The notes under the pieces: generated by a model
Seen by the model: the letters and a program-made list of their open reading frames with translations, nothing else
The model's database searches: none
What the model was told of the DNA's origin: nothing
Position numbers and translations under genes: made by a program
In this document: positions 24,271-64,000 of the stretch, one piece after another
Position numbering within the stretch: position 1 is the stretch's first letter
How the letters are laid out: each line of letters begins with the position of its first letter
Assembly: GCA_039621445.1 (NCBI GenBank)
Contig: CP154954.1
Location: 41,409,572-41,473,571 of the forward strand
Direction of reading: 5' to 3'
Source of the DNA: Euglena gracilis
Taxonomy: Eukaryota
Length of the DNA: 64,000 nt

Positions 24271-24313
24271 CAACGCAAGGTCACTTTCAAACGCAAGGTC
24301 ACTTCACTTTGGT

Positions 24314-42789: not shown

Positions 42790-44100
42790 GGGGCCCGACT
42801 GAGCGGATCCGCTACTTTTTGTGTGTGACCAGGGGTATAAATAACCACAAGGTTGAATTGACTCAAGAACTCATGCCATCTGCATCGCCTTCCGACCGAT
42901 GACATGGCCTTGTTCAAATCCTCGGTGTACCAGTGTTGGAGACTCTCATGGTCGGTCTTGACGAGGATCTGGACGAGGCTGCTGGCTACCCAGCTTCGGA
43001 ATTTCTGGAGTATAAGCACGATTGCGTAGGTTTCCTTCTCGCGTATACTCCATTTGACTTGACCTTTTCCATCGTCGCCCTGTAACTTTCTGCTGAAGAA
43101 AGCCACAGGTCGGAGCTCATTCGCCGCATTATGCTGGCTAAGAACTCCGCCAACAGCGTAATCGCTGCTGTCGACTTCCAACACGTATGGTTTGTAGGGG
43201 TCCGCGATTTCGAGGACAACATTCTCCAAAAGCAAAACCTTGATTTTCTCAAGGGCCTCGCGCATTTGGTCATCCCAAATGACTTTGGTGTTGTCAACAG
43301 CCCGGTTTTTGAGCTGTTTGGTGAGGGGCACCGCGATTTTCGCGAAGTCCTTCATATAAATCGCGTAGTATTGGGCTAATCCCAAAAATCCTTTGAGGTG
43401 TGTAATCGTTTTGATTACCTCAGGGGTCCATTTCTTAATGGCTTCGAGTTTACTCGGAGCGGCTTTCCGCTGTCCATTGCTGAGGATGTGACCGCAAAAT
43501 TTTATGAGAATCCGAAACAAATGCATTTTCGCGCCTTTCGCGAAAAGCACATGTTTTTGAAAGGCGGCTAATACCGCGCAAACATGGTGGAAGTGTGTGA
43601 CGAGGATATGGCAAACGGTAAATCGCGTAGAACCCATTGTATCATGCGCTGAAACATGGCTGGGCCATTCTTAACACCCATGGGGAGTACCGTCCATTGG
43701 TACACACCCTTGGATGTCACGAATGCCGAGTATGGTTGTGAGTCAGGGTAGGGTGCAAGTGCATTTGGTGAAAACCGTCCTCCAGATCGAAAATTGACCA
43801 CAACCGGTTTTCCGATTGTTTGGTGATCAAATCCTCGATCAGGGGGAGCGGGAAGGGATCATCCCTTGTTTGGGAGTTCAGGTACCGGTAATCCAGCACC
43901 ATTCTCCATTTCTTCTGACCGGAGGGGTCTGGGGGTTTAGGAACAACAAATGCCTGGGATTTCCACTCGCTTTTCGAGGGTACAATCCACTTGCGCTGAA
44001 TAAGCTTCTCAATCATTTCATTGAGAGCTTGTTCGCGTTCTCCCGAACAACGAAAAAAATTCCGGTGCATTGGTTTGGCTCCATCCTTAAGCTCGATCTT
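42790..44100 (-). pseudogene. pol: pol: reverse transcriptase and RNase H
   Basis: KWRMVLDYRYLN, FDLEDGFHQ, LPMGVKNGPAMFQR, FLGLAQYY, VDSSDYAVGGVLSQ, EKETYAI, TDHESL, VADPLSR; 5-bp duplication frameshift at ~43750 and YxDD missing at ~43605. Confidence 0.95.
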
Positions 44101-44309
44101 ACAAACACCGAACGGACCGCGTATCGCGGGGTCGATGTCGCACGCGTATACTGGATTTTCCAGCACACCGTGAAATTCGCGGGTGATCCGCGAACAGAAT
44201 TCGGCTGACTTAGGATGCTGACCTGCACTCTCGATGACTGCGGAAACCACCAGGGTATCCCTGGGGCTACCGAGCTTCCTCGGCACCGCGAATTCGGACA
44301 TTCCGAATG

Positions 44310-44715
44310 CATCGAAGAAACATACGCGAAAAATGATTTCTTGCAAGGGTGGTAATATTTTACCACAAAAATCCTCAAAAATCGGTACATTAGTGGGTAA
44401 ATCCCACCAATAAAAACATACATACGATAGTTGGGTGAACCATTCCGCTTCCGGAATGATGGGTATGAGAATAACTCCACGGGCTTCATCCCGCAGAATT
44501 TTCTCAACCGCACATTCGATAAGTTTTGGGGGAGGGTGCATCCATAACACCGTATCACCCCAAAATTTATCAAATGCGTTGGAGTGTTGTGACCAATGAC
44601 GTGGCAAACGGGCATGTGCATTGGATGAAAAGGCATCGATTTCCAATGCCAAATCAAAAGAATCAGCCAATGTCGCGATTTTGGAAAACCATCGTTCCAA
44701 AATGCGATATTGACC
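44310..44715 (-). CDS. pol: Dam/DIRS-type N6-adenine DNA methyltransferase-like domain
   Basis: IDAFSSNAHARLPRHW...NAFDKFW...LWMHPPPKLI...VEKI...GVILIP...EWF follows the DxFA...DAF...W...[N/F]PP...K...ILIxP...WF motif order of DIRS/phage Dam-like MTases. Confidence 0.75.
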
Positions 44716-45519
44716 AAAATTGAAAGCATTCCATACGCGTTTCGCGTATTCATGCACCCGATTTCCGGGTTGGAGTGAAGAAACACAATGAATGGATCCA
44801 CAAACATGCGGGTTGTCTTCCACTACCTCAAGGGATAATCCCAAGGGAGTTTGGACAAGTTGGGGTTTTCCCCATTCCGCATCAAATTCATACCAAGTGT
44901 ACTCGGGATGGTGATTAGGCATGACGCTTTTCGCGTTTCCGAACAACGAGGCTAATCCGCGTTGTTGGAGAACTCGGTGTATCTCCGTGCACTGCGGGCT
45001 ACAACTAAGTGTATCCTGGGGTGTGGATTCCGCTTTCAGAATGGCGATTAGTGTCGGATTTTGAACTAAACATCCACAATCGAAATCCGATTGGGTGGAA
45101 ATTCTCCTGCAGTGCACACATTGGAAGGAAGTGTGTTGGTGTGACAGGTGTGCGTGTAAGTGGGTGTCGATGGCATTAGCCGGTGAGTCTTGTACAGGTG
45201 TGCCTGGATTCGGCACAACTGGTGGGAAACGGAGTGGTGGTGTAGCTGGGCGACTACTCGACACCGTAATTTCTTCAGGCCTTTGGGCTTTCGTCTTGTA
45301 ACCCAGTGAAACGGCGGGGGTACCGCTACTGGCTTGCCCTGCCTCATGTGGAACGCATGTTGGTGTGTCGTTGGGCAGGGGGGAGGCTTTCTCCGTACCC
45401 CGGGTGTGGAAAACGGTTGTTGGTGTGGTGGTCATCATGGCGGATGTCAACGGTGATGGTGGTTTGGGTGTCAATGAAGTGGTGGGTGCTGTGCGCAAAC
45501 CGTGGGAGTGGCAATCCAC

Positions 45520-46059
45520 AACCAATCGGTACTGGCGTAAAAATGGGTATCCCAAAATTACGTCAGACCCGTGAATTCCGGACTCGTAACCCCAAATATT
45601 GGTGAAATGTTGTAATTGTGGGGGTTGTGAGTGATGCTTCGGAATGATGGGCAAGAGTATCTCGAGGACACATCCCAAATCACCACCACACATGAGGGTG
45701 TTATCCGCGGTTGTAATTTTGATCGGTTTCTTGGCGCTTACCAAGAGCGGGGTCGGTATCAACCCCAACCGAAAGAGCAGTGCAATGCGACAACCAGTGT
45801 CAATGAGAATTTTAACTTTCGCGGAGAAATTTTGGATGCGGATTTCCGCTTGGACAAGTAATTCCATTGGTGGTACGCAAAGTGAAGGGTCTGGCGGAAA
45901 TACGTTTGCATGCCAGCTCTCCCATGAACCCTTTCCTACTTTGCTCAGCATTCCGAGCGGAAATGTGGAGTGGGGGGTAGGGGACCCGAAATAATTCCGG
46001 GTACTGACCGTGAAGGCGGATGGGCAGGGGGGGCAAGGTTGATCAGGTCTTACCTCCAT
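45520..46059 (-). CDS. pol: pol: aspartic protease region
   Basis: ILIDTGC active-site motif and a downstream DVILGYPFL. Confidence 0.9.
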
Positions 46060-46068
46060 CTGTTCATC

Positions 46069-46107
46069 AGCCCAGAGGTCCGTGCCCTCGGACCTCGGGC
46101 TCCCCTA
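46069..46107 (-). promoter_or_regulatory. Putative gag-pol stop-codon readthrough signal (UAG-GGG plus stem-loop)
   Basis: The gag TAG (46107-46105) is in frame with pol; AGCCCGAGGTCCG pairs with CGGACCTC(T)GGGCT starting 3 nt later. Confidence 0.7.
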
Positions 46108-47559
46108 CTCCAAGTCCGAACCGGCCGCATAGCCGGCAACGGACTTTTTGGTGGAATAGATGGAATTCAATGAGCGCACCGCCATTCGGGCCTCATTAAA
46201 TTCCCCGTCCGAGGTCTCATCCCCCTCCCTGCCCGAAGCCGGAGGGTCCTCCTCCAAACAAGATATCTTGAAACCGACCTTTTGCCGGTTGGAGGAGTAA
46301 CCACGGTCATCGCGGCGCTTACCGCGATTTCCGTAGCCGGGCCGGGGGGAACGAGATCTGGGACATTTGGATGCGTGGTGATCTTTGGAACCGCAAAGTG
46401 AACAACGGGATTTGTGGCGGGATTCCGCATAACGGGGGGAACGGTATTCCGTTCTTCCGTCGAACCGTCGTGGTGAACGGGTTTCCCGTCGACCATGACC
46501 GGTGTACCGGGGTTTCCCCGGTGACTCCCGCGAAGAGGATGATCCACTTCGCGAACGAGATCGTGAAGAGTCGCGATTGAAATCCCGTTTTCGGGTAGGG
46601 GGTCCAGGTGACCGACCGCGAGAAGGACGGGTTTCCCGACCATCACGCGATGGTGACTTGGGCCTACTACCGCTAAAGCGGTTCTCCGAAGAACGTGAAA
46701 CTCCCGATTGACGTGAAAACGCCGAGGAACCCGATCCCCGTGAGGAGGTCGAGCCCCTTGGGCTTCCAATACGCTTTCGCGCATCGGGATTCGGGCATTC
46801 CCGAGACATGTGACCAGATTTGTTGCACAAAAAGCACAGTTTATCCGTGCCTTGGTCCGAAGAACGCTGATTCCGCGTTTTCGATCCCGTGGTGGGTGAT
46901 CTTGGTGACATGGGTGATTTTTGCAACGCATTAACCGCACCCGCAGGGATTCCCGCGGTGGGATGCGTTTGGAAAGCGGACTGTATTTGTCCCAAAACTT
47001 GTGTGAGCTTGAGTTGCTTTGACACATAATTCCAACGTTGGGCAAGAGTCATCTCATGCCCTGCCAACTCCTCGCGATGGATATCCTTCACGAGGGATGG
47101 TGTGAAATGCAACAAAACCGCATCGAATTGTTCGCGCATTTGCTTCTCGCTAAGTTCATCAACTTCGGAAGCAAGTGCTAACCATTTGGCATACCAAAGG
47201 TCAATGGATTTCCATTTGCGATCCGATGGCGCGAATTGTCGCCATTTCTTCTCCAGGGTAATCCTGGTGACCAAACTTGAGTTAGTTGAAGCGTATTGCT
47301 CAACCAGGTTATCGAATGATACACCATTACGTAGCACCAAATTGCGTGCGCGTTCTCGCTCCTCCCTCGGTAGGCAATCGATAAATTCCATCTTGACTAC
47401 CTCGGGATTCGGGTCTTGGGTGGGTCCCTTTAGTGCCCAGTAATACTCCCAGTCCGGAAAAAATTGTCTCCATGTGGTTCGCTGACGTCTTGTCTTGGTT
47501 CGCCTTCGTTCTAGACTCTGTTCCTGTCTTCTGGGTTGTCGAAGGTCAAATTTTTCGAA
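46105..47559 (-). CDS. gag: Gag with two CCHC zinc knuckles and an Arg/Ser-rich nucleocapsid region (true start unclear)
   Basis: CFLCNKSGHMSREC and CSLCGSKDHHASKC; the frame stays open upstream of the 47391 ATG (WRQFFPDWEYYW) to 47559. Confidence 0.9.
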   Translation of the reverse strand, partial: FEKFDLRQPRRQEQSLERRRTKTRRQRTTWRQFFPDWEYYWALKGPTQDPNPEVVKMEFIDCLPREERERARNLVLRNGVSFDNLVEQYASTNSSLVTRITLEKKWRQFAPSDRKWKSIDLWYAKWLALASEVDELSEKQMREQFDAVLLHFTPSLVKDIHREELAGHEMTLAQRWNYVSKQLKLTQVLGQIQSAFQTHPTAGIPAGAVNALQKSPMSPRSPTTGSKTRNQRSSDQGTDKLCFLCNKSGHMSRECPNPDARKRIGSPRGSTSSRGSGSSAFSRQSGVSRSSENRFSGSRPKSPSRDGRETRPSRGRSPGPPTRKRDFNRDSSRSRSRSGSSSSRESPGKPRYTGHGRRETRSPRRFDGRTEYRSPRYAESRHKSRCSLCGSKDHHASKCPRSRSPRPGYGNRGKRRDDRGYSSNRQKVGFKISCLEEDPPASGREGDETSDGEFNEARMAVRSLNSIYSTKKSVAGYAAGSDLE

Positions 47560-50056
47560 TCAACAAACTTCGGCGAAAAAGGCACTGAGCAGCAACGCCT
47601 TTCCCAGCGCCTCAAAACAATCCAAGCAACACCGCCGGCTCACAAGGGAAAAGTGCGGAGCCCGAGGCGTGTGTCCCTCCCTCCCTTGTCGGTTTTTCCT
47701 CGAGGGAGTGCGGCAATTGGTGGGCTTCCCCGGAAAAGGGGGGGGGGTCCTCCGGTCTGGATGGGTGGTAAGACCCTGGCCCTTAAAAAAAGGTGCATGT
47801 TGCTGCCTTTCCTAGCTCAAGTTCTTAAGAGGGTTCGTAAAGGGATTGCAATGACGAAATCGCAAGAAAGCAAACAGCCAGTGGTGCACATAAATGGTTC
47901 AAGGAAACTTGGGTAAGAATTTCCCCACACGGGATTCCTCTGTAACATAAACAAACACACTCAGGCACAAATGTGTGTTGTGAGTTTTGTGCATGCATGT
48001 GGGGTTGCGTGGGTGTGTGCAGCGCGCGCATATAAGGCGTGCATATGAGAGTGCTTCCATGAATGCGTGCATATATGTGCGTTTATGTGTGCTGGTTTTG
48101 TTGTTGTTTTTTGTGTTCTCTGATGACTGCTGGAATAACTTCAATTTATGTTGCGTCATCATGTCAAGGCGGCAGAGCGGAGGGTGGATGGATGGATGGG
48201 TGGGCAGAGGTTATCAGGAGAAGCAAAGAATATGAGGACAAATGACACACCATGCAGACAGCGGCAGGGGCCATGTGCACAATCTGGACAAATATGGACA
48301 AGCTGTGGCCACACATCGAGCCGCTGCCCCGAAAAAATAATAGGAAGACTGAAGCGGCTGGCAGCGGCACAGCGGGCAAATGAACAGACACCATTTGTGG
48401 TGGGTGAGAGTGAAGGGCATGGTCAACTGACGGACAGCAGCTCTCACCTCCAGGCGGGGGTTTCTTCATGTTGCCACTGAGGTCTCTCTGTGGGTCCTGG
48501 AAAGAACCAGGCAAATATCTACGAGAACCTCTGGGCTGCTGCCGCAATACCCTAGTGCGTTGGTATGTGGCTGGAAACTGTTTTTTTGGGGCAAGTTGGG
48601 ATCAGTTTATGACAAAGAACGGTAGAAAATGCACACCAATTATGGCAGATAATGCCCCCAAAATTGCCCTAAAACGGCCCACTCGACCACTCCTTCCTGT
48701 AAATCAAATTCACACACCAATTCATACTTTTTTTTTATTATACCAAAAATAGCGAAAAATGGCCCCAAAAAGGGAGGAAAGGCCCCAAAACAGATTCAGA
48801 TGGCCCAAACTTGACCATGCAGTCGAAACGTGCGGGAATGGGCAATTATACTGCGCCAAACTCCTGCAGAACCTCGAAATATGCGCTAAATATGCGAAAT
48901 ATGCACAAATATGCGATTCTTGGACAAAAAAAGTGAAATATGCACTAAATGTGCGAAATATGCGCAAAATATGCACTCTGCATATTCCCTCCCCCCTGTC
49001 TGATGGGCTACTGGTATCCTAATCTGCACAGGCGCAGGCACAGCCACCTTACAGGGGACCCGAGTGTCCCCGCAGCCAAGCCATCGCACCCATCAGCCGC
49101 CCATAGGGGCCGGAGCCCTGCCTTGTCAGCAGGGCTGTCCAGGGAGTCCTGGTCGGGGGTCGACCCCCCCCAGAAGGTGTGGATTAGACAACCCTCCCTC
49201 CCAAATAACTTTGCAGTGTCCTAAAGTTTTGTGTGCCTGAAGAACTTTGCAGGGGGGAAAGCGTAAAAAGATCGGTCCAAATAACTTTGCCCCCCTCCCT
49301 TTTCAAGGAAAAACCGTGAAAAATGATGCATCTTTTTGGGAAATCAGGAGGTGGCAAGGACAAAAAATCATCTGAAATGCCATAATAATCTATTATTAGA
49401 TGAATATAAATATTAAATAATATCACAAATATTAGTGAAACAAATTTCTTTTAAGAAGCGTGGTGAATCAATCCATCAATGGTTTTGGGTACTGCCCAAA
49501 TAAATTTGCAGGGGATTGGGGCCAAAAAGATCGGTCCTAACGTTGCAGGGGGCAAAATTATTTGGGGGGGGGTTACCACCGAGGGTTCCTGGTTCCCGGT
49601 CAGCCCTGCTTGTTGGGGATGGGGCGGAGGCTGGCCTGGCCAATGGTTCTGCCGGCGCCATTTCCGCAGATGATGCCCTGAGGCAAGACGGGTGCATGGC
49701 CTACACCGCGGCAGCCCCAGTGCAACGTCCAGACTTCTTTTTTTATCAACCCCTGGTGGGAGTGCCTTGTGCCGTGGGGTGCCTGTCCATAGCAGGCAAA
49801 CCGTCCCAAGAGTGGTCAGTTTTGGGCTCGGCTGCCTGCCGACCCAGACAAATTATCCTTGTGGGCCATTTTCGCGCCCCCAGCACATTGGCGCTGGGGG
49901 TGGAAGGGTGTGCTACAGCAGCCCCCGACCCCTCCTGCCTGCATCCACCCTCCGGGGGGGGGGTGCGAACTTCCTGATAAAAAGCCCAGCAACAACCTTC
50001 TCGGTGGGAGACACAAAGAAAATGGGCCAGCCGGCCAGCGGCAGCACGGGGCGCAC

Positions 50057-50230
50057 CGCTGCGGGGGCGGCAGCGGCGGGCGGTCGCCGGCGAACCGCGG
50101 GGGGAACGACGTGGCCCCGTCGAAGATGCAGAGCCGGCGCGGGCCCTCTGCCTCCGGGGGCGAGGGAGGGGCGGGGGGTGGGGGGAGGGGGGCGGTGGGC
50201 GACGGCTCTGCCCGGCCGGGGGGCGGACCC
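50057..50230 (-). CDS. FDGA-repeat protein exon (174 nt, phase 2-2)
   Basis: CCACAG acceptor, GTGCGC donor; encodes RRLCIFDGATSFPPRF. Confidence 0.8.
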
Positions 50231-50724
50231 CTGTGGAGGATGGGACGGGCGGTGGGAGGGGGGGGGGGGGGGGGGGGGGCTGGGGTTGAAATGGGAGGTG
50301 TCAGAGAGGGCCATGTGTGATGTGCACGTTTGTGGATAGGGTTCAACACTTGGGGCAACTCTGGTGCGAAGCAACAGAGGCAGAAACATCTGCAGAAAGA
50401 CATTTGAGTTGGATGAAAACAAAATGCGAATTCCTGTGGTTTTCTAGAATGATTTCTCAAGGGGATATCAGCTTTTAGGTTTGAAAATTATTTTTCTTTT
50501 GCTCATCCAATCTCCTCGATTTCAACTTTCTAAAAATTTGATCTTTTCTTCAAATATGCCTTGATGCAAAAAAAAAACTGCCAGATGAAATAGAACCACA
50601 TGGTCACATGACACCTGTGCCCAAAGGCATTGCCATTATATATTACCACAAATCCTGAGTGCAAAATAAAAAAATGCGTTATGAACTTGTGGGTCCAGAG
50701 ATGCGCAAATGGACAGGCCACGCA

Positions 50725-52681
50725 CAGGCACCTATAGTCAAGCCAAAAATTTCCTCATTTTAGGCCATTTTAGGCCATTTTAGGCCATTTAAGGCCATTT
50801 TAGGCCATTTTAGGCCATTTTAAGGTATAGGTGGGGGTTCTGAAATCATATTTTTTCGTTATTTTTGTCCCGAAAACTGTATCATAACGTGTGCAAACCT
50901 TCTCTTATTCAGTTATAACAAAAGTACATCCAAAAAGCATGCAAAATTCATGAACACTGGATCAAAACCATGGAAGCTCAACAAATCTTAATTCATTCCC
51001 ATAGAGGAATTCTGAACAGCAAGAATTTGCGGCAGTGAAATTTTTTCAGAAAATTTTTCTGAACAAATATTAAAAGTTTTATTTGCACTACCAGAAGGGC
51101 TCAGCTTTTTGTATTTTGGGGAAACATAATGCTGAATAAAAAACCCTCTGAACAAGTTATAAATGGGAGAGAATAATACACTAACCACACCCAAACACCA
51201 TAATATATATCGTTTGATATAGCCAATTCATAAAAAAAAAGCTTCTATAAATAATGAAAATATATTATTATCTTTCATAAAAATCATAATATCATAATAT
51301 CAAATCATAGTATCATTATAGTTAGCACCATTATAAAAAATTTGTTGTACATCATTCATTTCTTTATGATGATAAATATTTAATTGTAAGAATATATAAT
51401 AATAATTACTAAGATCCATAATACAAACAAAAAAATAAACTCCCAAAAACAATAAAAGGTGAAATATGTGAACCTAATCCTGTACCTATATACCAATAAA
51501 ATATTTCACATTCTATCATATTTTTTTATCATATTCAATTTTATCATATTCATATATTTTATCATACTCAATTTTATTAATAATATGCTTTAAAATGGTC
51601 ATAATAGTTATTATTAACAATTACATATTATATCAATACTATTTTACTTAATATATATTTATTAATTTCTATTTCTAAACGTCATTAGAAAATATATATT
51701 AATAAAATTGATAATAATCAGGGCGGTCCTTAAGCAAATAAAAAAAAAAACTCCGCTGTCCCAGCACACTCAGTGAAAAATATACAGGAAAATGGGCAAG
51801 AAATTTTTGGCATTTTTCAGGTCGACATCAGGAAAAAAATTGATTCCTGGCACCCTTGGACCATCGTCTATCCACCCAAATCATCAAAAACTGTGTTTTC
51901 CGACTGTTAAATTTTTGCCCCCGTTCAAATCCCAGTCTCTGGTCAGAGTCTGGCCCTTGGCCGGCCCTTTGGCCGAAAGGGGGGGCGGTCCTTAAGGAAA
52001 TAAAAAAAAAAACTATCCTGTCCCTTAAAGACCGCCCTGATAATAATAAAATACCCATATTCAATATCCATACTAAACATATAAAATTTGTATCATAATA
52101 AAATGTCCATTCATAAAAAAATATTAAATTTCCTTAGAAAATTTATTGTTAAATTTATAAATTTATAATAATACTTGTATTTTATATTTCAATTGAGATT
52201 TTCCAACATCTTTTACGTTTTTTTTCTGTCTTTTTCCCCGTGCTTCAAAACTTGCACTGTTTCATTATTTGTGAAACAGACATTGTTCCGCACCGAAGGA
52301 AAAAAAATGGGAGTAAGAAAAATAATTCTGTCCAAACCTTCAAAGTTCAGCTACCAAAAGGTTGTGGACTGTGGATTTGGGGACTGATGCTATTATTAAT
52401 AGGGATAAAAACATGGCCTTGTGGGGCTGTGCTCCTCCACCAAATCCACTGTTCGCCGTCCACATTAACAAAAGACACCGAAAGTCATTGCCTGAATGGA
52501 TTCAGTTGTTCACAAAAAAAAATTTGTGCAACAGAATTTTTCCCATTTTAGGCCATTTTAGGCCATTTTAGGCCATTTTAGGGACCCCCACCTATAGGGA
52601 GTCAAAAAGTCATTTTAGGCCATTTTAGGCCATTTTAGGCCATTTTAGGCCATTTTAGGCCATTTTAGCTATAGGTGCCTG
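50725..52681. mobile_element. Non-autonomous hAT-like transposon with AT-rich interior
   Basis: 13-bp TIRs CAGGCACCTATAG, perfect TSD GCCACGCA (50717-50724, 52682-52689), subterminal (TTTTAGGCCA)n arrays at both ends. Confidence 0.9.
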
Positions 52682-52893
52682 GCCACGCATTCACATTCCA
52701 CAAAAACACTCCACGTGCACGCTTGGCCATCGCCCTTTTTCCAGTTCCTTGTGATTAACTGGAACTGGAACTGGAATGTGGAAAAAAAACATGCCGACCA
52801 GGGGAACCGCACCCAACCGGCACCGGGTGCAGATTGGTTGGCTGTTTGCATTGGCGTCTCCATCGATCGGCCCTGCAGGGCCCAGCGGCACAC

Positions 52894-53031
52894 CGTGGCC
52901 CGCACGCGGCGGGCTCCGCAGCAAACCGCGGCTCAAACGACGTTGCGCCGTCAAAGATGGCGAAGCGCTTGGGCCCGGCGGCCGCCCCGGCGACCGGCCC
53001 CGCGGAGGACCCCGCGTCAGCCCCATGCCCC
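52894..53031 (-). CDS. FDGA-repeat protein exon (138 nt, phase 2-2)
   Basis: TTCTCAG acceptor, GTGTGC donor; encodes KRFAIFDGATSFEPRF. Confidence 0.8.
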
Positions 53032-54330
53032 CTGAGAAGTGGGCCGGGCCGTCAGATGCTCATTGATTTCCAAGCTGCATTTTGCAGGTCATTTTTGGGG
53101 CAATTGTCCAGCGTGTCCAGTGTGTCCAGCCTGGCCCAATAGGTGTTCATCCCCCCACCCCCCCCCGGGGGGGACTAGCTGGCCAGCACAAATAAATAGC
53201 CAGCCCAAAATTTTAGCCCTAGCTCAACAACTCCCCCGAGGCCTTAAAACGCCGCTGGGAGCGTTGGTTCCGCCACCCTCCCGACCACAGGGACAATCGA
53301 AGGGTTGATTTCAGAAACAGTACCCCCCTCCCCAAGCCCAATGAATACCAAGGCGACAGTCGACATGGTCCGGACAGGGGACGTTCAGGTTGTATGGGCA
53401 TTTGCATCGTTGTGAAAGGCAACAAATGACTTGACGGTCCGGACACCCACTGTTTGTTGGGCAAGGGGTCCATTTTGACATGGGGGGAGGTACCTTTCAG
53501 GCACAATTCAGAATCCCTCGGCGGGGTGGGGGTGCAATTCGCTCTCCCAGGACCCCCAAAAAGCTCAAATTCAAAAATTCGAATTCAAAAATAAAAACAC
53601 ATTTTGCCGGGATCAAGCCAGAGAGAGCAAAACCCGAGCCAGCTCCAATGTGTGCCCGGGGGGGGATTGGTTCACCCCAGGTCTTTGCTCTATTCGGAAG
53701 AGGGGAGTCGCTACGACCCAAGCCAACTTTAACCCAGCGGGGATCAACTTTAACTGGCAATCCAATAAAGTAGGGGGGGGACTCCCCTCCCTCCATGGGT
53801 TCCTTTTTTTGACGCTGGTTCACACGCGAATGGCAACAGATGTGCTCATGAGAATAAAAGTTTTTGGGGAACTCCAAGTGGGTGCCCATTGGGCTTTTTT
53901 TACGTTTAGGCTCAAATATTTGAAGGACGTCATCCCCTTGAAAACATGAAGAGAATTTGCAGATGATTTTTTTGGTGTTCAATGCATTATACACCTGCTT
54001 GCGTTCCCAGTCCAATTGGCAAGTGGAGTGCACATGATCCTGGGGGTGGGGGGCACCCCCAGGTCTGTGCGCGACCCCCCAGAGAGGACGGGGACAAAAA
54101 TGTCTATCGAATACCAATAGCATACAACAGAAGCAAACAACCTTTTTTTAATGTGATTTGAATGATTTTTATGTGATTTATGTGATTGGGCAAATCATCG
54201 AATGTGAGAGGGGAAAAAAGCGTTAAATCTCAACGGTGCCTCCAGGTTTTCAGGACATTTGTGAAAAATAATGGAGTGGGTCGGTGGGTGGGTGGATGGG
54301 TGGCAGAAAGCGGCCACAGGTGGCACACAC

Positions 54331-54474
54331 CCAAGCGGCGGGTGAGGAAGGTCTGCAGCGAAATGAGGTGCGTAGGAGGTTGCGCCGTCGAAGATCGCGA
54401 AGGCCGGAAGACGGCGGACGCCGCCGGTGATCAGGGGGCCGGCGGAGGGAGAGCGGGCTGAGGTGGGGCCGCTG
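54331..54474 (-). CDS. FDGA-repeat protein exon (144 nt, phase 2-2)
   Basis: CCGTCAG acceptor, GTGTGT donor; encodes PAFAIFDGATSYAPHF. Confidence 0.78.
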
Positions 54475-54804
54475 CTGACGGGGGAGGAGAGGGGCGACCG
54501 AGGCCAGGGCCCATGAGCCCATTTTATTTTTCACAACGTGCAGGGGCTGCCCGCAGCACAGGCTGGAGAAGCAGTGTGGAATGCGGCCCTGGTTGGGGCG
54601 GGTGGGATGGTGGGGCCACTGCCGGAGGGGAAGGGGGGCGGCCGGCGGGACCCTCGGCGGACCCCCTGAGTCGGAGCAGACGCATGTTGCCGGACCGTCT
54701 GGATTGTCGTCGACGGTACTGTCAGACAATGCGTGTGCCATGGATTGGAAAGAACCGGAAACAGGCAGGCACGCCGGGCAAGCCAGAGGCTGCACGGGGC
54801 GCAC

Positions 54805-54978
54805 CGCTGCGGGGGCGGCAGTGGCGGGCGGTCGCCGGCGAACCGCGGGGGGAACGACGTGGCCCCGTCGAAGATACAGAGCCGGCGCGGGCCCTCTGCC
54901 TCTGGGGGCGAGGGAGGGGCGGGGTGTGGGGGGAGGGGGGCGGTGGGCGACGGCTCTGCCCGGCCGGGGGGTGGACCC
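54805..54978 (-). CDS. FDGA-repeat protein exon (174 nt, phase 2-2)
   Basis: Near-identical to 50057-50230, with AG/GT ends. Confidence 0.8.
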
Positions 54979-57317
54979 CTGTGGAGGATGGGATGGGCGG
55001 GGGGGGGGGGTGATGGGAGGCAGAAAGGGAGATCAGAGAAGGGGTTACTGTCACTGTCACTGTCGCAGAAACAACACGCAACGCAACAAGGCACGGCTGA
55101 ACTTCCAAAAACTCACAGGAAGAGGGATTGTCATCTTGAACTCTGCTCAAGGCGGGGGGGGGGGCAGGCCGGCCTCGAAAACAATCGCTAAAATGTGCAA
55201 AAATGTGCAAAAATGCGCATTTTGGTGAAAAAATGCACAAAGTTGTGCAAAATTGTGCAAAATGTGTGGGTGAGAGAAATGAAAATCATAAAAATACAAA
55301 ACCAAAAACATGCAAAAATGGCTCCAAACTCAACAGAAATTAAATGGAATTGTGCACTTACTATACTTTATACTGGAACAATTTTGGAACTCTCTCCAAA
55401 GAAAAAACACAGGGTTTACTCCCAAACTGGTGAAGGGGAGACCAAAGCATTTCTTTTGTTTTATTTGAGCATATTTTGCGATCAGCAGTTTTCAAAAATT
55501 AGAAAAACCATCTTTTCTGCTTTTTTTGGGTTAAAAATGCATGAAATAAGACTTGCACCTTTTGTTTGTTTATATTTATATGTTTGCATGTTTTTGAGGG
55601 TCTACATTACGCCCCCCCCCCCCCCCCGAAACGACTCCTAATTTGAGGTTTGACCTCCAAATTTGGATTCTGAAATTCGCCCACGACTTATTTACACTTC
55701 AATCTTTTTGCCATCCCCATTGCCCGACCCTGGGAGAGTGGGATGGCATGGCAGTTCCTTTCTGTCTAGTCTAGTCTGTCAACCAACAGCAAGAGGGGCA
55801 TCTCACTCCTCTACAAAAGTAGGCAATTCCATAGCAGGGGGAAATCTCATCCAGTGTTGAATTTTGAAATCCAAGTTGTTCCATAATTATGTGAGTTATT
55901 GCTCCAAGGGGTATGGGATTTCATGGAACTCTGCCAAAAATTCTCATCAGAGCAAATCCTTGTCACAGGCCCCACGGGAAATTTTTGTTCTCGAGAATAT
56001 GCCAGGGTCCCTGGTAAGCCAACCTGTTGTTAAACGAAATTTTCAGGGTCCCAGGCGTCGACCGGTCAGCTGACAGTCTTCCTGGGGTTGGGGGAGGAGA
56101 AACTTCCGGAAATGGCATGCATCTGTCCTTGAAGGGGGGGGGACGGCTTTTTTGCGTTCTTTTTTGCATTTTTTTTTATTTTGGCAAGATTTATGCTTTT
56201 GTGTGTGTCCTTCTGTTTTTTTTTTGCACCCATTTTACCCTTACGCCAAAATTTTTGTCATTTTTGTCATTTTTCCATTTTTGGTCAACAAATTGCAACA
56301 TTTTATGCAAAGCGAAAATTTTCCTCACTGTATGTGAAGAATTTTTAAATATTTCGCACTTTTTCCACATTTAACACACTGGGAAGACCCAAAATTCCTG
56401 AGATACAACAAAACCTTTTTTCACAGCACCGTTTCATGATTTTGACATTACACTTTTTCATGATACTTGCTATTCTGACTCTTCCGTGAAATTTTGGGGG
56501 AAACTCAAAAAGTCAAAAAATAAGCACACAAAAAAAACCAATTGGTTGGATTTTTCAAAAAAAATCAACAAAACAACAAACTTGAAGAATGCAAAATGAA
56601 ACAGATATTCTATGAACTTGAAACAACAAACATAAAAAAATAATCACAAAATACAAAAACATGCTTGCGGGTTAAAAAACTAAGTTGCGTTAAAAACCCG
56701 CCAGAAGGAAAAAAAATAAAAAGAAAAGAAAGCAGAAAGAAAAGAAAGACTGCAATTCTCTTGGAAGAACTACTTCTGAATTGAAAACACACATTTGTCC
56801 TCCTCTCTCCCTTGTTCTCGCTTTTGAGGGAAAAAAACCCTCAATTTTGGATGCATTTGAATTGGGGCATTCTAATTCTTTAATGCATGGGTAAACTGTG
56901 GGCCCTGGTCGGCCCTGGTTGGCAAATGGTCGGCCGCAGGTGGGGGTCAGCATATGTCACGACCGTACAATACACTTTGAAACACATTTGCCCACTTTTC
57001 TTACTTTTACCCATTTACCCAATTTCGACCTCTTTTGCCCGTTTTTTTTGGGGGGGGGGCAGCTTTTTGGCCAATTTTAGCCATTTAAGCCAATTTTGGG
57101 TGCTCTATTTTTTCTTGGGCCACTTTGTGCACCATTGGCAACGTTTAGGCAACTTTTGGTCCTTTTGGCCAATTTGGCATTTTTGATGGCTTCTGTGCTT
57201 TTTTGCCCACTTTTGGCCACTTTTGGCCACTTTTACCGACTTTTGGCCTTATGGCCACTTCGGCCACTTTCAGGCTGCTTTTCCTGCTTTTACCACTTTT
57301 GGACACTTCGTTGCCAC

Positions 57318-57668
57318 CAGGCATTATTTTTTTAAGGAGCCTGAAAAAACCTGAAAACCCCTTTAAAAAAAGTGGTTCTGGAATTTTTCGAATTTTGAGC
57401 GAAACAGAAGTCTCAAAATATTGGCAAAAACAGGCCAACTCCAGGGGAAAAAATGATGATTTCTTGCATCACTGAACATTGTCCATCCACCCAAAACTCA
57501 AAAAAAAATGTGTTTGATTTTCAACCTGGACCGACGTTGGTTCGATGCCCGGATGGCTTTTTGACCGTCCATGAAATATAGGCGCCTTAAAGATTCTTAA
57601 TACCCTAAAAAACCCTTAAAAAACCTTCAAAAATCTTGAAAAATTTGCCTTAAAAATAACAATGCCTG
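57318..57668. mobile_element. hAT-like MITE
   Basis: Termini CAGGCATT...AATGCCTG and a perfect TSD GTTGCCAC (57310-57317, 57669-57676). Confidence 0.82.
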
Positions 57669-59088
57669 GTTGCCACTTTTTTGCTGCTTTTTTTGACTGC
57701 TTTTGGCCACCTTTTGCTGCTTTGGCCACTTTTGTCTCTTTTGCCTCTTTTGCACACCTTTTACCATTTTTTTTTTACCCACCTTTGCCACCTTTAGGCC
57801 ACTTTGGGCTTCTTTTTGTTGTGTTTGAAGTCAAAAAAGCAGCAACAAGTGGCCACAAATCAACAAAAGTGCCAAAAGCAATCGAAAGCAGTGACTGAAT
57901 AATGACCAAACATCAGGAAATGGGTCAAAACAACAGCAAAAAACGAACAAGATTTGGCAAGGGTGGCCAAGAGCGGTCAAAAGACAGCAAAAAGTGGCCA
58001 GAAGTCGGCACAAAAAAAAACAGTCAAAAGCAACAAAAAATGATAAAATGGCCTAAAAGCGGCCAAGATGGTAAAAATGGCCAAAAGTGAGCAAAGGAGC
58101 ACAGGGCTGTACGGGAAGGCCTGGTGGGGGGGGGTCGACCCCCCCACCACAGCATTTTCACAAAAATTTTGGGTCGAAAATTGGTGCTCCGGGAAATACG
58201 GGAGGAGCTGGTGGGGGGTGGGGGTGGTCGACTCCCCCCACCCACCACACAGGGGTTGGGGTGGGGTGGTCGACCCCTCCCAACCACCACCCTGGCTGTT
58301 TGGCCGATTCCCGCACTGCCCTGGCCCAAAGCTGGCCAAAAGCAGTCAACAGCAGCAAAGGGTGGCCAGACGAAGCCAGAAATGGAACATGACAGGCCAA
58401 GCAGGTACAACTGGGTAAGACTTCCGTGTTTCCCAAATACTGCCGCTGCGGCTGACAAACTGTGAAGTCGGCCCTGGTCGCCCCTGGTCGGAACCCCACT
58501 GATGGTGGCCTTGAAAATGACCCAGCCTGGGTCGCACCTGGTCAGCCCTGGTCAGCCCTGGTCGGCTGTAGGTGCCTGGTGGTCAACAAAAACTGATAAA
58601 AGGATGGAAATAAACAAAGTTGAAAGACAGAAGAATTTTTGTTACAAATTATACTTCATGTTAGCAAAACTCTTCCTCCTCGTTTAGACTTTGTGGGGGA
58701 AAAAACCCTCTGGGATCTTGTGCACCAACCCATAGAGGACACAAAGAAAATTGTGAGGCACAAATAAACTGACAAATATGCAAATAATGATAAAACCCAA
58801 AAAAATACTCAAAAAAGCGAAAAGGCATGAAAGACAGCGAGCAAATAGGCGAATGTCTCTGAGGCGCAGCATCGAAAGAAAAACTTCCGTGGTTTCGGCC
58901 AAAAGAGGGCCGGGGGTGGGTCTGGAGTCCCCATACGACTTCCCCCCCCGAGGGTGCTCTGGACCCCACAGGCGACCTACCTCAAAACCGAAGGCTTCCC
59001 ATTCATCCCTGTCCACCCCACAAGGGAACAAGGAGAACCGCAGCAAAGAGAGATGGGCCAGCCGGCCAGCGGCACTATTGGGGCGTAC

Positions 59089-59262
59089 CGCTGCGGGGGC
59101 GGCGGCGGCGGGCGGTCGCTGGCAAACCGCGGGGGGAACGACGTGGCCCCGTCGAAGATGCAGAGCCGGCGTGGGCCGTCCGCCTCCGGGGGCGAGGGAG
59201 GGGCGGGGGGTGGGGGGAGGGGGGCGGCGGGCGACGGCTCCGCCCGGCCGGGGGGCGGACCC
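59089..59262 (-). CDS. FDGA-repeat protein exon (174 nt, phase 2-2)
   Basis: Third copy of the 174-nt exon; CCACAG acceptor, GTACGC donor. Confidence 0.8.
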
Positions 59263-59456
59263 CTGTGGAGGAAGGGGCGGGCGCGGGTGGGGGGCGGGGG
59301 GGGGGTGCCTGTGGTTGGCTGTCCTGGGCCATAGCAGAGCACGTTATCTGCCCAATGTATCCGCCAGCAAGGCTTGAGACCCGCCACCAGGCGTGGGGGT
59401 GGCGGGCCGCTGGGTGCACTGCTGACCCACGCGATGTGTTGCTGACCCCGGCGCAC

Positions 59457-59594
59457 CGGCGGGCAGAGGGGGGGCGGAGCTGGCGGAGGGCGACGTCATC
59501 GACGAAGCGGCTGGGGAACGTGCACGCCCCGTCGTACACCACGAAGCGACGGCGGCCGGGCGACGGGGTTGGTCGCCCAGGCGCCGGTGGTCGG
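59457..59594 (-). CDS. FDGA-repeat protein exon (acceptor uncertain)
   Basis: Encodes RRFVVYDGACTFPSRF; phase-2 GTGCGC donor. Confidence 0.68.
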
Positions 59595-59612
59595 CTCAAC
59601 GCCCCCCCCGTC

Positions 59613-59647
<35 letters not shown>

Positions 59648-59687
59648 GCATACTACTGTACTACTGTACTAAAGTTCACCCCACGAT

Positions 59688-60052
59688 GGCCACCCAAAAT
59701 TTTTCTTGTCTCCGTCCGCGGCGATCGCAGGTTTTTTTGGGGTTCTTCGGCAGGACACGCGCGACGCGCGAAGGCCCAAAGGCGGCAGAGACAACTGCCT
59801 GGCTTTTGACCGCCGGGCGATTTCCCAGAACCGGCCCCTTTGTGGTCCACCCCGGGGACCCGGAGGGCCAAATCCCCCTGTGGGAACCGACCGTTCAGCG
59901 GGCGTTATCTTTCTTCCTCCCTGCCTGTCCGCCGCCATTGGGAATCGCGCGGCTTTGGTTCGGCAGGATGCGCGTTGTGCGCATCCTGCCCAAGAACCCC
60001 GAAAAAACCTGCGATCGCCGCAGACGGGGACAAGAAAATTTTTTGGGTGGCC
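59688..60052. mobile_element. MITE-like element with ~75-bp imperfect TIRs
   Basis: GGCCACCCAAAATTTTTCTTGTC...GCGATCGCAGG is inverted at 59980-60052. Confidence 0.75.
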
Positions 60053-61014
60053 CCGGGGGGGGGGGGATTATATTTCTCACCTGCCGTATATGTATACCTA
60101 CCCCCCCGGGAAACTGTCATGCCCGAGAACCTGTCAGGGTCCCGCCCGGGAAACCGTCAGGGTCCTCAGTACCGGCCAACACACATACACATACACATAC
60201 ACACGGCAGCTCCCAGCTATATGCCCCCCCAGGGGGGCCATATAGTAGGATCAGGGGTGGGGTTGCATGGTGTGACCCAGGTCTGACGTTCCGACTTTTC
60301 GGTCCCGCGGCGCTGGGGAACCGTGCGGTTTCCGGGCAATGGCCAGCGGATCCGGGAAGGGTTCCACTTAATTTTCGAAATAGGGTTAGGGTTAGGATTG
60401 GTGGGCCTTTTTAGTAGGAAAGTTAGGCCGGAAGTTAGGTCCCCGTTTCGGGAAGGTTTTGGAAAACGCACTCTGTCCCAAAATAGCCCGAATTCGGCCT
60501 AAATTTTGAAATTCTGGAAATCGTCCGGAATGCCGAACTTAGGCGGCTCATCTTAAGCTGTTTTCTTTGTCGATGTGACCAATTGCGCAATCAACACTTT
60601 TTTTATATACAGAATTCTTGAACCGCCAAATGCACCTGGGAAAATAGCAAGATATAAAATTCACACCTCACAGCACAGGTTAGGAAACACAAAATCTCAA
60701 ACTACCATCCTAACGAGCTTTCTGATACACCTGGAGTGACAGATTGGTGTTGTCGTCTGTGAAACAGGTGGTTTGTACACCCTTGCTGTTGCGCCCCTCC
60801 GGCTCCGGGAGCAGGAGGGGTAATGCGTTGGACACACAGGCCAGCCTTGCGTAGTGTGATGGGTGTGTTGGGGTGTGGTAGGGGGGCGTGTTGTGCATGG
60901 TGTGGCGTGGCGTGGAGTGGTGTGGAGTGGAGTGGAGAGGTGTGGTGTGGTGCGGCGAGGTGATATGGTCGTTCGCTTAAGGGCCCCAATTCCCCCTCCC
61001 CCTCCCTTTCAACC

Positions 61015-61150
61015 ACGGTGGCGGCCCGGGGGCGGGGATGGGCTGTGGGGCAGACTGCCGTCGGGGACGAAGCGCGGGGCAAAGGTGCAGGCGCCGTCGA
61101 ACACCGCAAAGCGGGGGACGGCGGGGGTGGCCGCTGGCAACCCCGACGGG
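61015..61150 (-). CDS. FDGA-repeat protein exon (donor uncertain)
   Basis: GGCCAG acceptor in phase 2; encodes PRFAVFDGACTFAPRF. Confidence 0.68.
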
Positions 61151-61459
61151 CTGGCCAGGGAGAGTTTGGGGGTGCAACCCCAACAGCAGGGTACTAAGTG
61201 AAGGGCGGACGGGGTTCGACCCCCGGGGGGAGGGGGGGGGGCGCTGGAGATATTATTTTGTGTCAGAAAAACAAATGCCTCAAAAATCTTGCTTTTCGAC
61301 ACCTTTCGGAAAAAATTAATAAAACCACCTCAGACTGAAAACAGATGCTCATATGGGTGCACCCATCCTAGCTTCTCCTCTGCCAAGGATGCTGGCTTCT
61401 CCACACCCCCACCCCCCCACGTCGGCCACAGCTGGGCCGGCCCTTCAGGGGCCACTTGC

Positions 61460-61654
61460 CCGCTGTCTGCTGGGCTGGAACGGCGGCGGTGGGCGGCGAA
61501 GCGCTGGGGGAAGCTGCACGCCCCGTCGAAGACCACGAACGTCTTCAGCTGCCGCGGGTCGGGCGGGGGCTGGGATGGGCGCCCCCCCCCCCCCCCGGGC
61601 ATTCGCTTTCGCCGGGCCGCGCTGGGGGTTGGGGGAGGGCCCAATGGTCCGCGG
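61460..61654 (-). CDS. FDGA-repeat protein exon (195 nt, phase 2-2, GC donor)
   Basis: ATCCAG acceptor, GCAAGT donor; encodes KTFVVFDGACSFPQRF. Confidence 0.7.
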
Positions 61655-62460
61655 CTGGATGGACAGCCCGCCACCTCTCCATCAAGGCGGAATACAGAAC
61701 AGTGGTGTATGTGTTGGCACTAGTGGCGCGTGACCCTGACATCCCCGAGAAGTTTGGCCACCGACCCCGACAGCTTGCTGGGGCAAAGGCCACAACCCCG
61801 GAATGTGTGTGACTCCGTTCGGGGGCCGAATTGCGGATGACTGCGTACCCAATGAACCACTTGGTTTACCTTTTCGGAGGCTGGTTGCTCATCGGCTGTG
61901 AACTTGTGGACACCATTCTGCAGAAATGGCATCCCCTCCATCACTTTGCTTTGAATGGGCCGTTGGTGCGCCATGAGTATGCTTGCTGCCTGGGACTAAC
62001 TTCGAGGACAGGGCTCCCCATCCCATCCCCATCAATGCCAGGGGGCGACGTGGGCCAGGCAGCAGCCGCACACCCAACACGATGCCTGCGAAGAAGAAGG
62101 CACCGCTGGCCAATACAGTGGCGTTCCCAAGACACAGCGGTGGGACTGGCTCCCTAGAAAGCCATTCAATGCAGCCCATTTTCAGGGGAAAGTTTTTTTC
62201 ACAAAGTGCAGAGATCCATTTTTCTCAGCAGCTTCAGCAAACCAGTCCCTTGAAGGTGCAATACAATTACACGACCAATCATGGTTCACCTACCTCCCCT
62301 GGGTACGAACAGCAAATGCAAGTGAATGCAGGTTTGAGAGTGCCATAATATTACCAAGGTTGGTGTGCATTTGTCTTTTGTGTGTGTTTGCGCCTTTGCC
62401 GTGAATGTGCATGTGAATGCCGGGGGGGTGTGGGTGGGTGGGTCTTGTGGATGGCTCATT

Positions 62461-63526
62461 GCGGGAAATTGGCCATGGGACTTTTGGTGGTCGCTCGGGA
62501 CCGGTAGCTAGCGACCGGTCGCTAGCGACCGTTGGTCATGGTCGACCGACCATTGGTGGTCGCTAGCGACCGGTCGCTAGCGACCGGTCGCTACCACCAA
62601 TATTTCGACCACCCCCCCCCCTTCAGAAAATTTTTCACCCCCCCCCCCCCAATAGGATTTTATTGCAAAACCCCCAAGTTGTACTGCAAAACGATGCTAC
62701 CAGGGCCAGGCGCGGATGTAATGCCACGCGCAGTCCTAAGGCGCCTTTGGTCGTCTGACGGGGGGGGTGGTGGGGGGGTGCGGGGGGGGGCCTGCCGCCC
62801 CCCCAAGCACCCCCCGGCCCCCCCCCCCCGCCCTCCAATAACAAAATCCCTTCCGGGGGGTAACCGACCCAGGGCCATGCGCGCATGTAGTGCCACGCGC
62901 ACGGTAAACAAAACAGTCCTAAGGCGCCTTCGGCGCCCTTGGTCGTCTAGCGGGGGGGGGGGCTGCCGCCCCCCCCCCCCCGCACCCCCCCCCCCGCCCT
63001 CCAATAACAAAATCCCTTCCGGGGGGTAACCGACCCAGGGCCATGCGCGCATGTAGTGCCACGCGCACGGTAAACAAAACAGTCCTAAGGCGCCTTCGGC
63101 GCCCTTGGTCGTCTAGCGGGGGGGGGGGGCTGCCGCCCCCCCCCCCCCCCCCCCCCCCCCCGCCCTCCAATAACAAAATCCCTTCCGGGGGTAACCGACC
63201 CAGGGCCATGCGCGCATGTAATGCCACGCGCACCGTAAACAAAACAGTCCTAAGGCGCCTTCGTGCAAGATCCTAAAAGCAGAAAAAGGAATTTTTGATA
63301 TAAAATTTCATGTTTTTCTCTGAGGGAAATTTTTCCTTCACAGGGGGGGGGGGCTTAAAAATCTTCTGAGGGGGGGGGGGTCGAATTATTGGTGGTCGCT
63401 ACCGACCCGCCGCTCCCACCACCACCGGTCGCTAGCGACCGGTCGCCAGAATTCGGTCGCTAGCGACCATGGTCGCTAGCGACCGGTCGCTAGCGACCAC
63501 CAAAAGTCACATGGCCAATCTCCCGC
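62461..63526. mobile_element. Non-autonomous TIR element rich in the GGTCGCTAGCGACC palindrome, with internal ~180-bp tandem repeats
   Basis: GCGGGAAATTGGCCATGGGACTTTTGGTGGTCGCT is inverted at 63490-63526; ~3 internal units containing CCAATAACAAAATCCCTTCC. Confidence 0.8.
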
Positions 63527-63590
63527 TCGGAGCCGATGCCTTTGATAGCATGAAATGTTGGCAGGCTCGCACTCCAGGCAAGGCGCATAC

Positions 63591-63685
63591 AATTCATCCT
63601 CGTCTGCGGGGGACACCAGCAACGTGGGCAGCGCCACCGGCTGGGGCGAGGGGTCCCCGGAGACCCGCCCGGGCAGGCAGCCCAT
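63591..63685 (-). CDS. Probable first exon of the FDGA-repeat gene, N-terminus MGC (possible acylation)
   Basis: MGCLPGRVSGDPSPQPVALPTLLVSPADEDE; 95 nt ending in phase 2 at a GTATGC donor, matching the downstream exon phases. Confidence 0.6.
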
Positions 63686-64000
63686 GGATGGAGGTGGAGA
63701 CACGGCAACGCCCCCAAATAACATAATGCAGCACCACGCCCAACTCTATGGAGATTTTGTGCCTGTTATTTTGGGGGGGCGCCCAAAAGAAAGCCTGGGA
63801 GGGGAACATTTGAACAAAATTATCCAAACTTAAAAATCACCACAAAATGCTTCACCAATTCCTCCAGATCTTATTTTTTTTTGCAATATTCAAACCTAAC
63901 GGGGTTTGGAACTTGTAAAAGCTCAATGTCATCCATTTCTGTGTTTTTTGATTTATCCCGTGATTTTTCCACCCGGTTCCCTTTGTCTGCACCATAGTGT

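Follow-up and report, generated by a model that had tools for sequence, protein, structure and literature searches.

Disordered scaffold proteins that carry many copies of a short motif are well known, e.g., the FAM21 tail with its LFa repeats, Eps15 and epsin with their DPW/NPF repeats and GW182 with its GW repeats. Likewise, repeat proteins encoded by symmetric, duplicated exons are exemplified by the salivary proline-rich proteins, the PEVK region of titin and the collagens. Here, we analysed a gene of Euglena gracilis that resembles both groups. It is located on the minus strand of a stretch of 64,000 nucleotides (nt; GenBank assembly GCA_039621445.1, contig CP154954.1, forward-strand positions 41,409,572 to 41,473,571), which will be referred to as the window and in which position 1 is the first letter. 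An earlier sequence-only reading had proposed that positions 50057-63685 harbour a hidden gene, in which eight segments each encode one copy of an unrecognised peptide motif and whose product would be a possibly acylated, disordered and multivalent scaffold. We found that one expressed nuclear gene comprises all eight segments as exons, and most of its splicing, its frame and the symmetry of its exons could be established. Like the scaffolds named above, its product is of low complexity, rich in proline, devoid of a predicted fold and equipped with eight spaced copies of one motif; unlike them, its motif is not known to match any described one, and no sequence relationship to those proteins was detected. 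Like the genes of the second group, it contains one repeat per exon, with exon lengths that are multiples of three and a single intron phase, whereas its introns are a euglenid mixture of GT-AG and nonconventional types.

The motif was analysed by scanning all six frames of the window with the 14-residue pattern [FL]x[IV][FY]DGA[TC][ST][FY]xx[RH]F. All eight matches obtained were located on the minus strand, no match was detected on the plus strand or outside 50092-61539, and none occurred in 600 randomised windows (300 block shuffles and 300 second-order Markov simulations), which bears out the eight motif segments originally claimed. Asp5, Gly6, Ala7 and Phe14 are invariant across the eight copies. 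The codons used for the conserved residues vary (Gly GGG/GGC; Ala GCG/GCC/GCA; Phe TTC/TTT; Arg CGC/CGG), and the Ser residues of the motif are encoded by codons of both families, AGC and TCG/TCC. Differences between the copies favour third codon positions: in the 15 pairs of the six non-duplicate units, codon positions 1, 2 and 3 differ 51, 54 and 109 times, respectively. Over a 30-residue core, the five older units are 37-53% identical to unit C and have retained Phe or Tyr at motif positions 4 and 10 by means of different codons. The proposed conservation of the peptide despite synonymous change is therefore confirmed, and codon-level constraint acts on the motif. Neighbouring motifs are separated by 33-57 residues, and the proline-rich linkers between them are variable.

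To join the segments in RNA, two kinds of data were mapped on positions 47600-64000: Logan contigs of three runs labelled 'RNA?' (X7, X5 and X2, each from a different study, their RNA nature being presumed) and raw reads of X12, a run on record as RNA-seq, of which approximately 5% was read. Five on-record RNA-seq runs had been added to the run list by species label. Ten 'RNA?' runs from seven studies each contained 5-7% of the sampled words of 52700-62300, which corresponds approximately to the share of the exons, and one run contained 58% of them. Among the joints listed (Table 1, plus-strand coordinates), eight exon-exon joints were present in two or three of the three contig runs, and seven of the eight were also found in one to five raw reads of X12. 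The assembled DNA lacks the joined forms, and an on-record RNA library contains seven of the eight joints; they therefore represent products of splicing. Mapped RNA thus connects the segments, in contigs of three runs and in raw reads of a fourth.

Table 1: Exons, motif copies, RNA joints and the nested intron of the gene (window coordinates; contig runs are X7, X5 and X2; X12 reads are raw reads).
Feature	Position	Strand	Description	Motif copy	Evidence
E1, coding part	63591..63685	minus	95 nt; ATG 63685 starts MGC; exon end follows codon base 2; next intron GT-AG		joint to 62084/62082
E2	62032..62085	minus	54 nt, motif-less		joints 62084-63590 and 61558-62032; three contig runs, 2-3 X12 reads
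E3	61454..61558	minus	105 nt; nonconventional introns on both sides	FVVFDGACSFPQRF, 61539-61498	pieces of X2, X5 and X7, and joints
E4	61034..61135	minus	102 nt; nonconventional introns on both sides	FAVFDGACTFAPRF, 61110-61069	pieces of X2 and X5 (X7: 61027-61135)
E5	59457..59570	minus	114 nt	FVVYDGACTFPSRF, 59545-59504	5' end by RNA joint; 3' end placed by in-phase GTGCGCC donor
E6 (C)	59089..59262	minus	174 nt; Pro-rich linker	LCIFDGATSFPPRF, 59165-59124	placed by CAG acceptor, GTACGCC donor and 88% identity to A
E7 (B)	54805..54978	minus	174 nt	LCIFDGATSFPPRF, 54881-54840	donor by joint 49676-54804 (side of 29 letters); acceptor predicted
E8	54331..54474	minus	144 nt	FAIFDGATSYAPHF, 54401-54360	joint 53030-54330, GT-AG; X5 piece 54330-54473
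E9	52894..53031	minus	138 nt	FAIFDGATSFEPRF, 52964-52923	X2 and X5 pieces 52893-53030, contigs extend beyond
E10 (A)	50057..50230	minus	174 nt	LCIFDGATSFPPRF, 50133-50092	placed by splice signals and repeat; no joint among those listed
E11	49609..49677	minus	69 nt, motif-less		joints 49676-54804 and 49121-49609; three contig runs
E12	49048..49121	minus	74 nt; stop codon 49051-49049		joints 49121-49609 and 48495-49047
E13	47891..48496	minus	606 nt; 3' untranslated region to contig limit		pieces 47891-48495 (775-nt records of X2 and X5) and 47922-48495 (747-nt record of X7)
Nested intron	54500..54594	minus	95 nt, nonconventional; inside conventional intron 54804-54475 between exons 7 and 8		joint 54499-54595, non-GT/AG ends; X7 and X2
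Joint	62084/62082 to 63590	minus	GT-AG		3 contig runs (X7, X5, X2); 2 X12 reads
Joint	61558 to 62032		non-GT/AG		3 contig runs; 3 X12 reads
Joint	61135 to 61454		non-GT/AG		3 contig runs; 3 X12 reads
Joint	59570 to 61034		non-GT/AG		2 contig runs (X5, X2), up to 86 colinear letters; 1 X12 read
Joint	53030 to 54330		GT-AG		2 contig runs (X5, X2); 1 X12 read
Joint	49676 to 54804		GT-AG		3 contig runs; 0 X12 reads
Joint	49121 to 49609		non-GT/AG, slidable by 5		3 contig runs; 1 X12 read
Joint	48495 to 49047		GT-AG		3 contig runs; 5 X12 reads

These data also bear on the reading that the segments are not exons at all but a dispersed high-copy repeat or fragments of transposons. High-copy sequence is indeed present in the introns, with an RNA-contig depth in the thousands at 50335-53069 and 59634-60180, and a Ty3/gypsy-type element adjoins the gene. 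The motif exons, however, are covered by contigs at a depth of only ~0.5-35, unlike the repeat bins, they are joined to each other in RNA, they show the bias towards third codon positions, and the eight of them share a single strand and a single frame series. We therefore disfavour this reading and regard it as highly improbable.

The resulting gene model comprises 13 exons from 63685 down to 47891 with a frame of 471 codons, or 485 if an upstream ATG is used. The length of each of the ten internal coding exons is divisible by three and every coding intron follows codon base 2, confirming the identical phase noted from the sequence. With such lengths, the frame has to be identified from stops and not from its preservation alone: the motif frame runs without a stop for 491 codons of the spliced model, whereas neither of the other two sense frames exceeds 201. 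The GC content at third codon positions (GC3) of the coding sequence is 0.83. The codons split at the ends of E5, C, B, E9 and A encode Arg whichever of these exons follows, and the one after E8 encodes Gly. Of the exon lengths predicted earlier, 138 nt (52894-53031) and 144 nt (54331-54474) are exact according to RNA and the three of 174 nt are supported, whereas the supposed 195-nt exon had to be corrected: RNA contigs place it at 61558-61454, i.e., 105 nt, with non-GT/AG borders. The candidate first exon starting with MGC was confirmed by an RNA joint, with its ATG at 63685 and its end at 63591 after codon base 2. The two motif segments formerly lacking resolved splice sites correspond to the exons at 61135-61034 (102 nt) and 59570-59457 (114 nt), and the 54-nt E2 (62085-62032) as well as three 3' exons below 50057 had not been recognised before. 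Taken together, this is very probably a real, expressed protein-coding gene.

The sequence-only reading had further suggested that the motif exons can be skipped. A joint connecting exon B (54805) to E11 (49677) and thereby omitting E8, E9 and A was indeed present in all three contig runs. Nevertheless, this joint is weak, as it is anchored by 29 letters on the upstream side, where exons A and B differ at one base, and was found in none of the raw reads. Exon skipping in this gene is hinted at only. In addition, 15 raw reads of X12 joined 61596 to 62969; the shorter side of this joint comprises 20 letters and lies beside homopolymer runs, and rather than an intron, the joint probably reflects mis-mapping at the C/G runs.

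Exons A, B and C (50230-50057, 54978-54805 and 59262-59089) form a direct-repeat family of 239 nt with identities of 100, 94 and 88%, respectively, spaced by 4748 and 4284 nt. Alignment with 600 nt of context demonstrated that the similarity starts ~40 nt before the AG of the C-rich tract plus CAG and stops ~20-25 nt past the GTGCGCC or GTACGCC donor, the flanks beyond being unalignable. Thus, a recent tandem exon duplication took the splice signals along. Over 171 in-frame bases, A and B differ by four synonymous and one non-synonymous codon changes (four of five differences at third positions), A and C by four and four (five of eight) and B and C by eight and five (nine of 13).

According to the model, seven introns fit the GT-AG type, three of them seen in RNA joints, four are nonconventional and one is of unsettled type. 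Donors of the GT-AG type have the sequence GTG[CT]G or GTA[CT]G; a C-rich tract followed by CAG makes up the acceptors. These signals match those given for conventional introns of Euglena gracilis in the available part of PMC11170887, namely, GTGTG as the 5' consensus and, at the 3' site, CAG with a polypyrimidine tract rich in C. The four non-GT/AG introns had end-to-end duplex energies of -40.5, -31.7, -30.7 and -26.6 kcal/mol compared to -23.6 +/- 4.5, -23.7 +/- 3.7, -23.7 +/- 4.0 and -15.5 +/- 3.4 kcal/mol for their shuffled controls. Pairing of the intron ends is described for euglenid nonconventional introns in excerpts of PMC6221363 and PMC3935182. Including a nested intron, all five nonconventional introns were 1.8 to 3.8 standard deviations (SD) below the shuffles, whereas none of the seven GT-AG-type introns nor I12 was beyond ~1 SD below its own. 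The nonconventional signature 5'-N3CDG...CH'GN5-6|R, as worded in the available text of PMC12501133, is present in two of the five (the intron between E11 and E12 after sliding by 3, and the nested intron) and absent from the other three. The combination of GT-AG introns with nonconventional introns whose ends pair points to a euglenid-type intron set. Nonconventional introns border the older units E3-E5, and introns of the GT-AG type border the younger ones.

The nested intron of 95 nt lies within a conventional intron and was removed in contigs of X2 and X7 that had kept part of the outer intron. Its end pairing amounts to -23.3 kcal/mol, compared to -12.5 +/- 2.8 kcal/mol for shuffles, and it fits the signature in the form N3-CAG...CTG-N5|R (PMC12501133, excerpt). 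Retention of the outer intron (54804-54475) would shift the frame.

The encoded protein is basic and consists of 23% Pro, 14% Ala, 10% Gly and 10% Arg. Modelling of the 57-residue unit C by AlphaFold2 with an alignment of eight rows yielded neither helix nor strand (predicted template modelling score 0.20; mean predicted local distance difference test 74). This result, together with the high proline content, fits the disorder claimed earlier; the protein is probably intrinsically disordered and would display eight short linear motifs. Four copies of the unit modelled together gave a score of 0.01, which is no verdict and weighs neither way. The missing strands also argue against the possibility that the motif is a structural element, for instance, a small Asp-Gly hairpin packing between copies in a self-assembling protein of the cytoskeleton, pellicle or matrix. 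Hydrophobic residues alternating on either side of the invariant Asp-Gly and the extensin-like, proline-rich spacers would fit such a role. However, no signal peptide or transmembrane stretch is evident by eye in the N-terminal exon, and the variable linkers with motifs 33-57 residues apart are unlike a regular structural repeat, making a structural element an unlikely explanation.

Proteins that start with Met-Gly-Cys can be dually acylated and anchored to membranes, as in Src-family kinases, G-alpha subunits and the kinetoplastid HASPB. Translation from ATG 63685 likewise gives MGC at the start, and the residues that follow agree with the PROSITE-type myristoylation pattern G-{EDRKHPFYW}-x(2)-[STAGCN]-{P}. 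On the other hand, an in-frame ATG is present at 63727, 42 nt (14 codons) upstream of 63685 with neither a stop nor an AG in between, and both ATGs are preceded by the best outron-like acceptor, which consists of a C-rich tract plus CAG at ~63795. If ATG 63727 is the start, the protein has an extension beginning MLFGG, the Gly is internal and, unlike in the proteins named above, cannot be myristoylated. The GC3 of the 13 extension codons (6/13 compared to 0.83 in the coding sequence; binomial P 0.003) mildly favours ATG 63685 as the start. Due to the in-frame upstream ATG, acylation of the N-terminus appears doubtful, and membrane anchoring via MGC would be possible only if ATG 63685 is used.

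Relatives of the protein were searched for in several libraries. Pfam returned no family for six exon peptides at E up to 10, noting that the HMMER filters drop most weak matches, and Rfam had no match in the window. In word-indexed protein searches, the alignment of eight units yielded 0 of 8000 passing candidates among longer proteins, where proline-rich words can crowd out relatives, and 0 of 461 among proteins of similar length; exon 9 against longer proteins gave 345 candidates, none of them at E up to 1. No match was obtained among PDB chains at E up to 10, no usable match in the ESM Atlas and no match to the motif strings in the literature text. Of 63 peptide-pattern matches in metagenome contigs, none was confirmed by tblastn, a test that a single 14-residue motif could not pass. 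A degenerate DNA pattern applied to metagenome contigs gave four single-copy matches, three with stops in or beside the motif, which were read as chance.

Only a profile of the 30-residue core, searched against 1.84 billion representatives, detected three proteins at E up to 0.001. Inspection and Pfam identified them as unrelated repeat proteins of bacteria or archaea, i.e., as chance matches. One of them, P0003, is a DUF285/BspA-type protein (PF03382 at 5.2e-72) with repeats reading MFDGATSFNQ, and the string FDGA[TS][SA]F is accordingly shared between the motif and the repeats of P0003; the other two proteins are bacterial. In contrast to the motif exons, P0003 consists of tightly packed repeats of ~24 residues without proline-rich linkers and without an R-F after the motif, DUF285 repeats are folded, and the exon peptides had no Pfam match to PF03382. 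We read the likeness as a chance resemblance of seven residues in the sequence. Euglenid proteins may be scarce in these libraries, in which a lone 14-residue motif cannot reach significance; the blank thus shows only the absence of a multi-copy relative in those libraries. By this measure, the gene is a lineage-restricted orphan repeat gene whose motif is unrecognised and for which no relative could be detected, although the kind of protein, a disordered repeat protein from symmetric exons, is already known.

The architecture suggests a multivalent docking scaffold. Each of the eight motifs would be bound by one common folded domain, and the proline-rich linkers might serve as spacers or as secondary sites of the SH3, WW or profilin type. 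The number of motif sites could change in evolution and possibly also by alternative splicing: as the internal exons are multiples of three that start with codon base 3 and end with codon base 2, duplication or skipping of an exon keeps the frame and makes the number of sites variable. For the statement as a whole, i.e., an expressed gene whose disordered product is a multivalent docking scaffold, we see a little better than an even chance. An extended version appears unlikely to hold in full; according to it, the protein would be a euglenid-specific, membrane-tethered adaptor with the number of docking sites set by the symmetric exons spliced in, the motif would form a new peptide-domain pair, perhaps of a divergent MLLE/PAM2 type, and motif exons would have been duplicated along with intron signals of either type, conventional or nonconventional.

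In one particular form of the docking scaffold, the motif would be PAM2-like and its copies would bind the MLLE domain of poly(A)-binding protein, making the interaction multivalent. The canonical PAM2 consensus is LNxxAxEFxP, with a beta-turn between two anchor pockets (PMC7356810, available text). The spacing fits, with Ile/Val at motif position 3, Ala at 7 and Phe/Tyr at 10 in all eight copies and Pro at 12 in six of eight, and the turn-prone Asp-Gly is found where PAM2 peptides turn according to the same excerpt (PMC7356810). On the other hand, the Asn of PAM2 is replaced by Phe or Tyr at position 4 and the Glu by Ser or Thr at position 9 in all eight copies, and the most conserved residues of the motif, F4, D5, G6, R13 and F14, are not part of PAM2. 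None of the six exon peptides matched PAM2 in the Pfam search (no family at E up to 10), Pfam presumably including a PAM2 model. Furthermore, PAM2 proteins are not known to possess more than one or two copies of the peptide, unlike the eight found here. A PAM2-like identity is therefore improbable. Several other known motifs were rejected on spacing, namely, tankyrase RxxxDG, AP-2/GGA ear motifs, FGDF, the SHP box, LIR, SIM, 14-3-3 modes and Homer PPxxF. Sites of RF-amide precursors were likewise rejected on spacing and due to the lack of a signal peptide and of a Gly-dibasic site.

Several observations weigh against the docking scaffold. We infer the docking role from architecture alone, and no binding partner was found. 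Expression is low, with a raw-read depth mostly below 7 over the exon bins in the ~5% of X12 that was read. Five borders are placed by splice signals (the donor of E5, the acceptors of C and B and both ends of A), and the donor of C at 59089 is backed only by an X2 contig piece that ends at 59088 and does not continue into exon B. Exon A is covered by an X2 contig at 50128 and by bin depths of 9.67 (X2), 3.47 (X5) and 0.49 (X7). Several contigs of X2 match exon ends and then continue into unlike sequence, which suggests paralogues or other isoforms, and some of the RNA words may be off-locus. At 59088-59115, 59551-59568 and 50061-50083, X2 contigs with a depth of 14-73 match the ends of motif exons and are followed by unlike sequence or by 14-39 replaced letters, suggesting expressed paralogues or alleles elsewhere in the genome. 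Outside the motif, the comparison of A with C (four synonymous, four non-synonymous) indicates mild constraint only. Finally, no relative was found in any library searched, and the gene could be a young orphan.

According to this last view, the gene would be a young, fast-evolving orphan or a transcribed repeat without specific function, and the identity of A, B and C would reflect recent duplication or gene conversion. The lack of relatives in the libraries searched, the low expression and the A-C comparison are all in line with it. However, the older units are only 37-53% identical to unit C and yet have kept D5, G6, A7 and F14 invariant through different codons, the frame is open across 12 exons, and the flanks of A, B and C are unalignable while the exons are 88-94% identical. 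We thus consider a gene without specific function unlikely and maintain the docking scaffold as our working view.

Further features were noticed in and around the gene. Directly downstream of its 3' end, a Ty3/gypsy-type retrotransposon occupies 41107-47559 on the minus strand, for which Pfam detected a zinc knuckle, RVT_1 (weak), RT_RNaseH, Integrase_H2C2, rve and a C-terminal chromodomain. Three long open frames of 494, 459 and 532 codons adjoin it at 35591-41015, also on the minus strand; they lacked Pfam matches at E 0.001 and could belong either to a further mobile element or to an unknown gene. A long tandem array at 24017-25831 is open in three frames with a period of 11 residues (..SWKSFYTNKRL.. 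in one frame) and is probably a 33-nt satellite. Within the gene, intron 1 contains a unit of 166 nt repeated 2.9 times at 62782-63263 with long C/G homopolymer runs. On either side of this repeat, a palindromic unit of 14 nt occurs in clusters, with ACCGGTCGCTAGCG arrays at 63424-63499 and similar arrays at ~62500-62620. Between 62500 and 63500, RNA depth reached 1418 (X2) and many raw reads had loose ends of poly-C. The introns at 50335-53069, 56899-58539 and 59634-60180 were covered by RNA contigs of X7 and X5 at depths of hundreds to thousands, far above the exons, and these stretches presumably consist of repeats that are either high-copy or highly transcribed. A 10-nt unit (CATTTTAGGC) forms arrays at 50756-50822 and 52543-52668.

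As it stands, the gene has no bearing on a long-standing open question. It does offer a test bed for euglenid splicing, as GT-AG-type, nonconventional and nested introns occur in one gene beside recently duplicated exons. Even if it is a young orphan, it still shows how a repeat protein can arise quickly when exons of the same phase are duplicated. Should the motif prove to be a true docking site, it would represent a new peptide-domain pair in protists with poorly charted cell biology, and the gene would be a clean example of valency encoded exon by exon.

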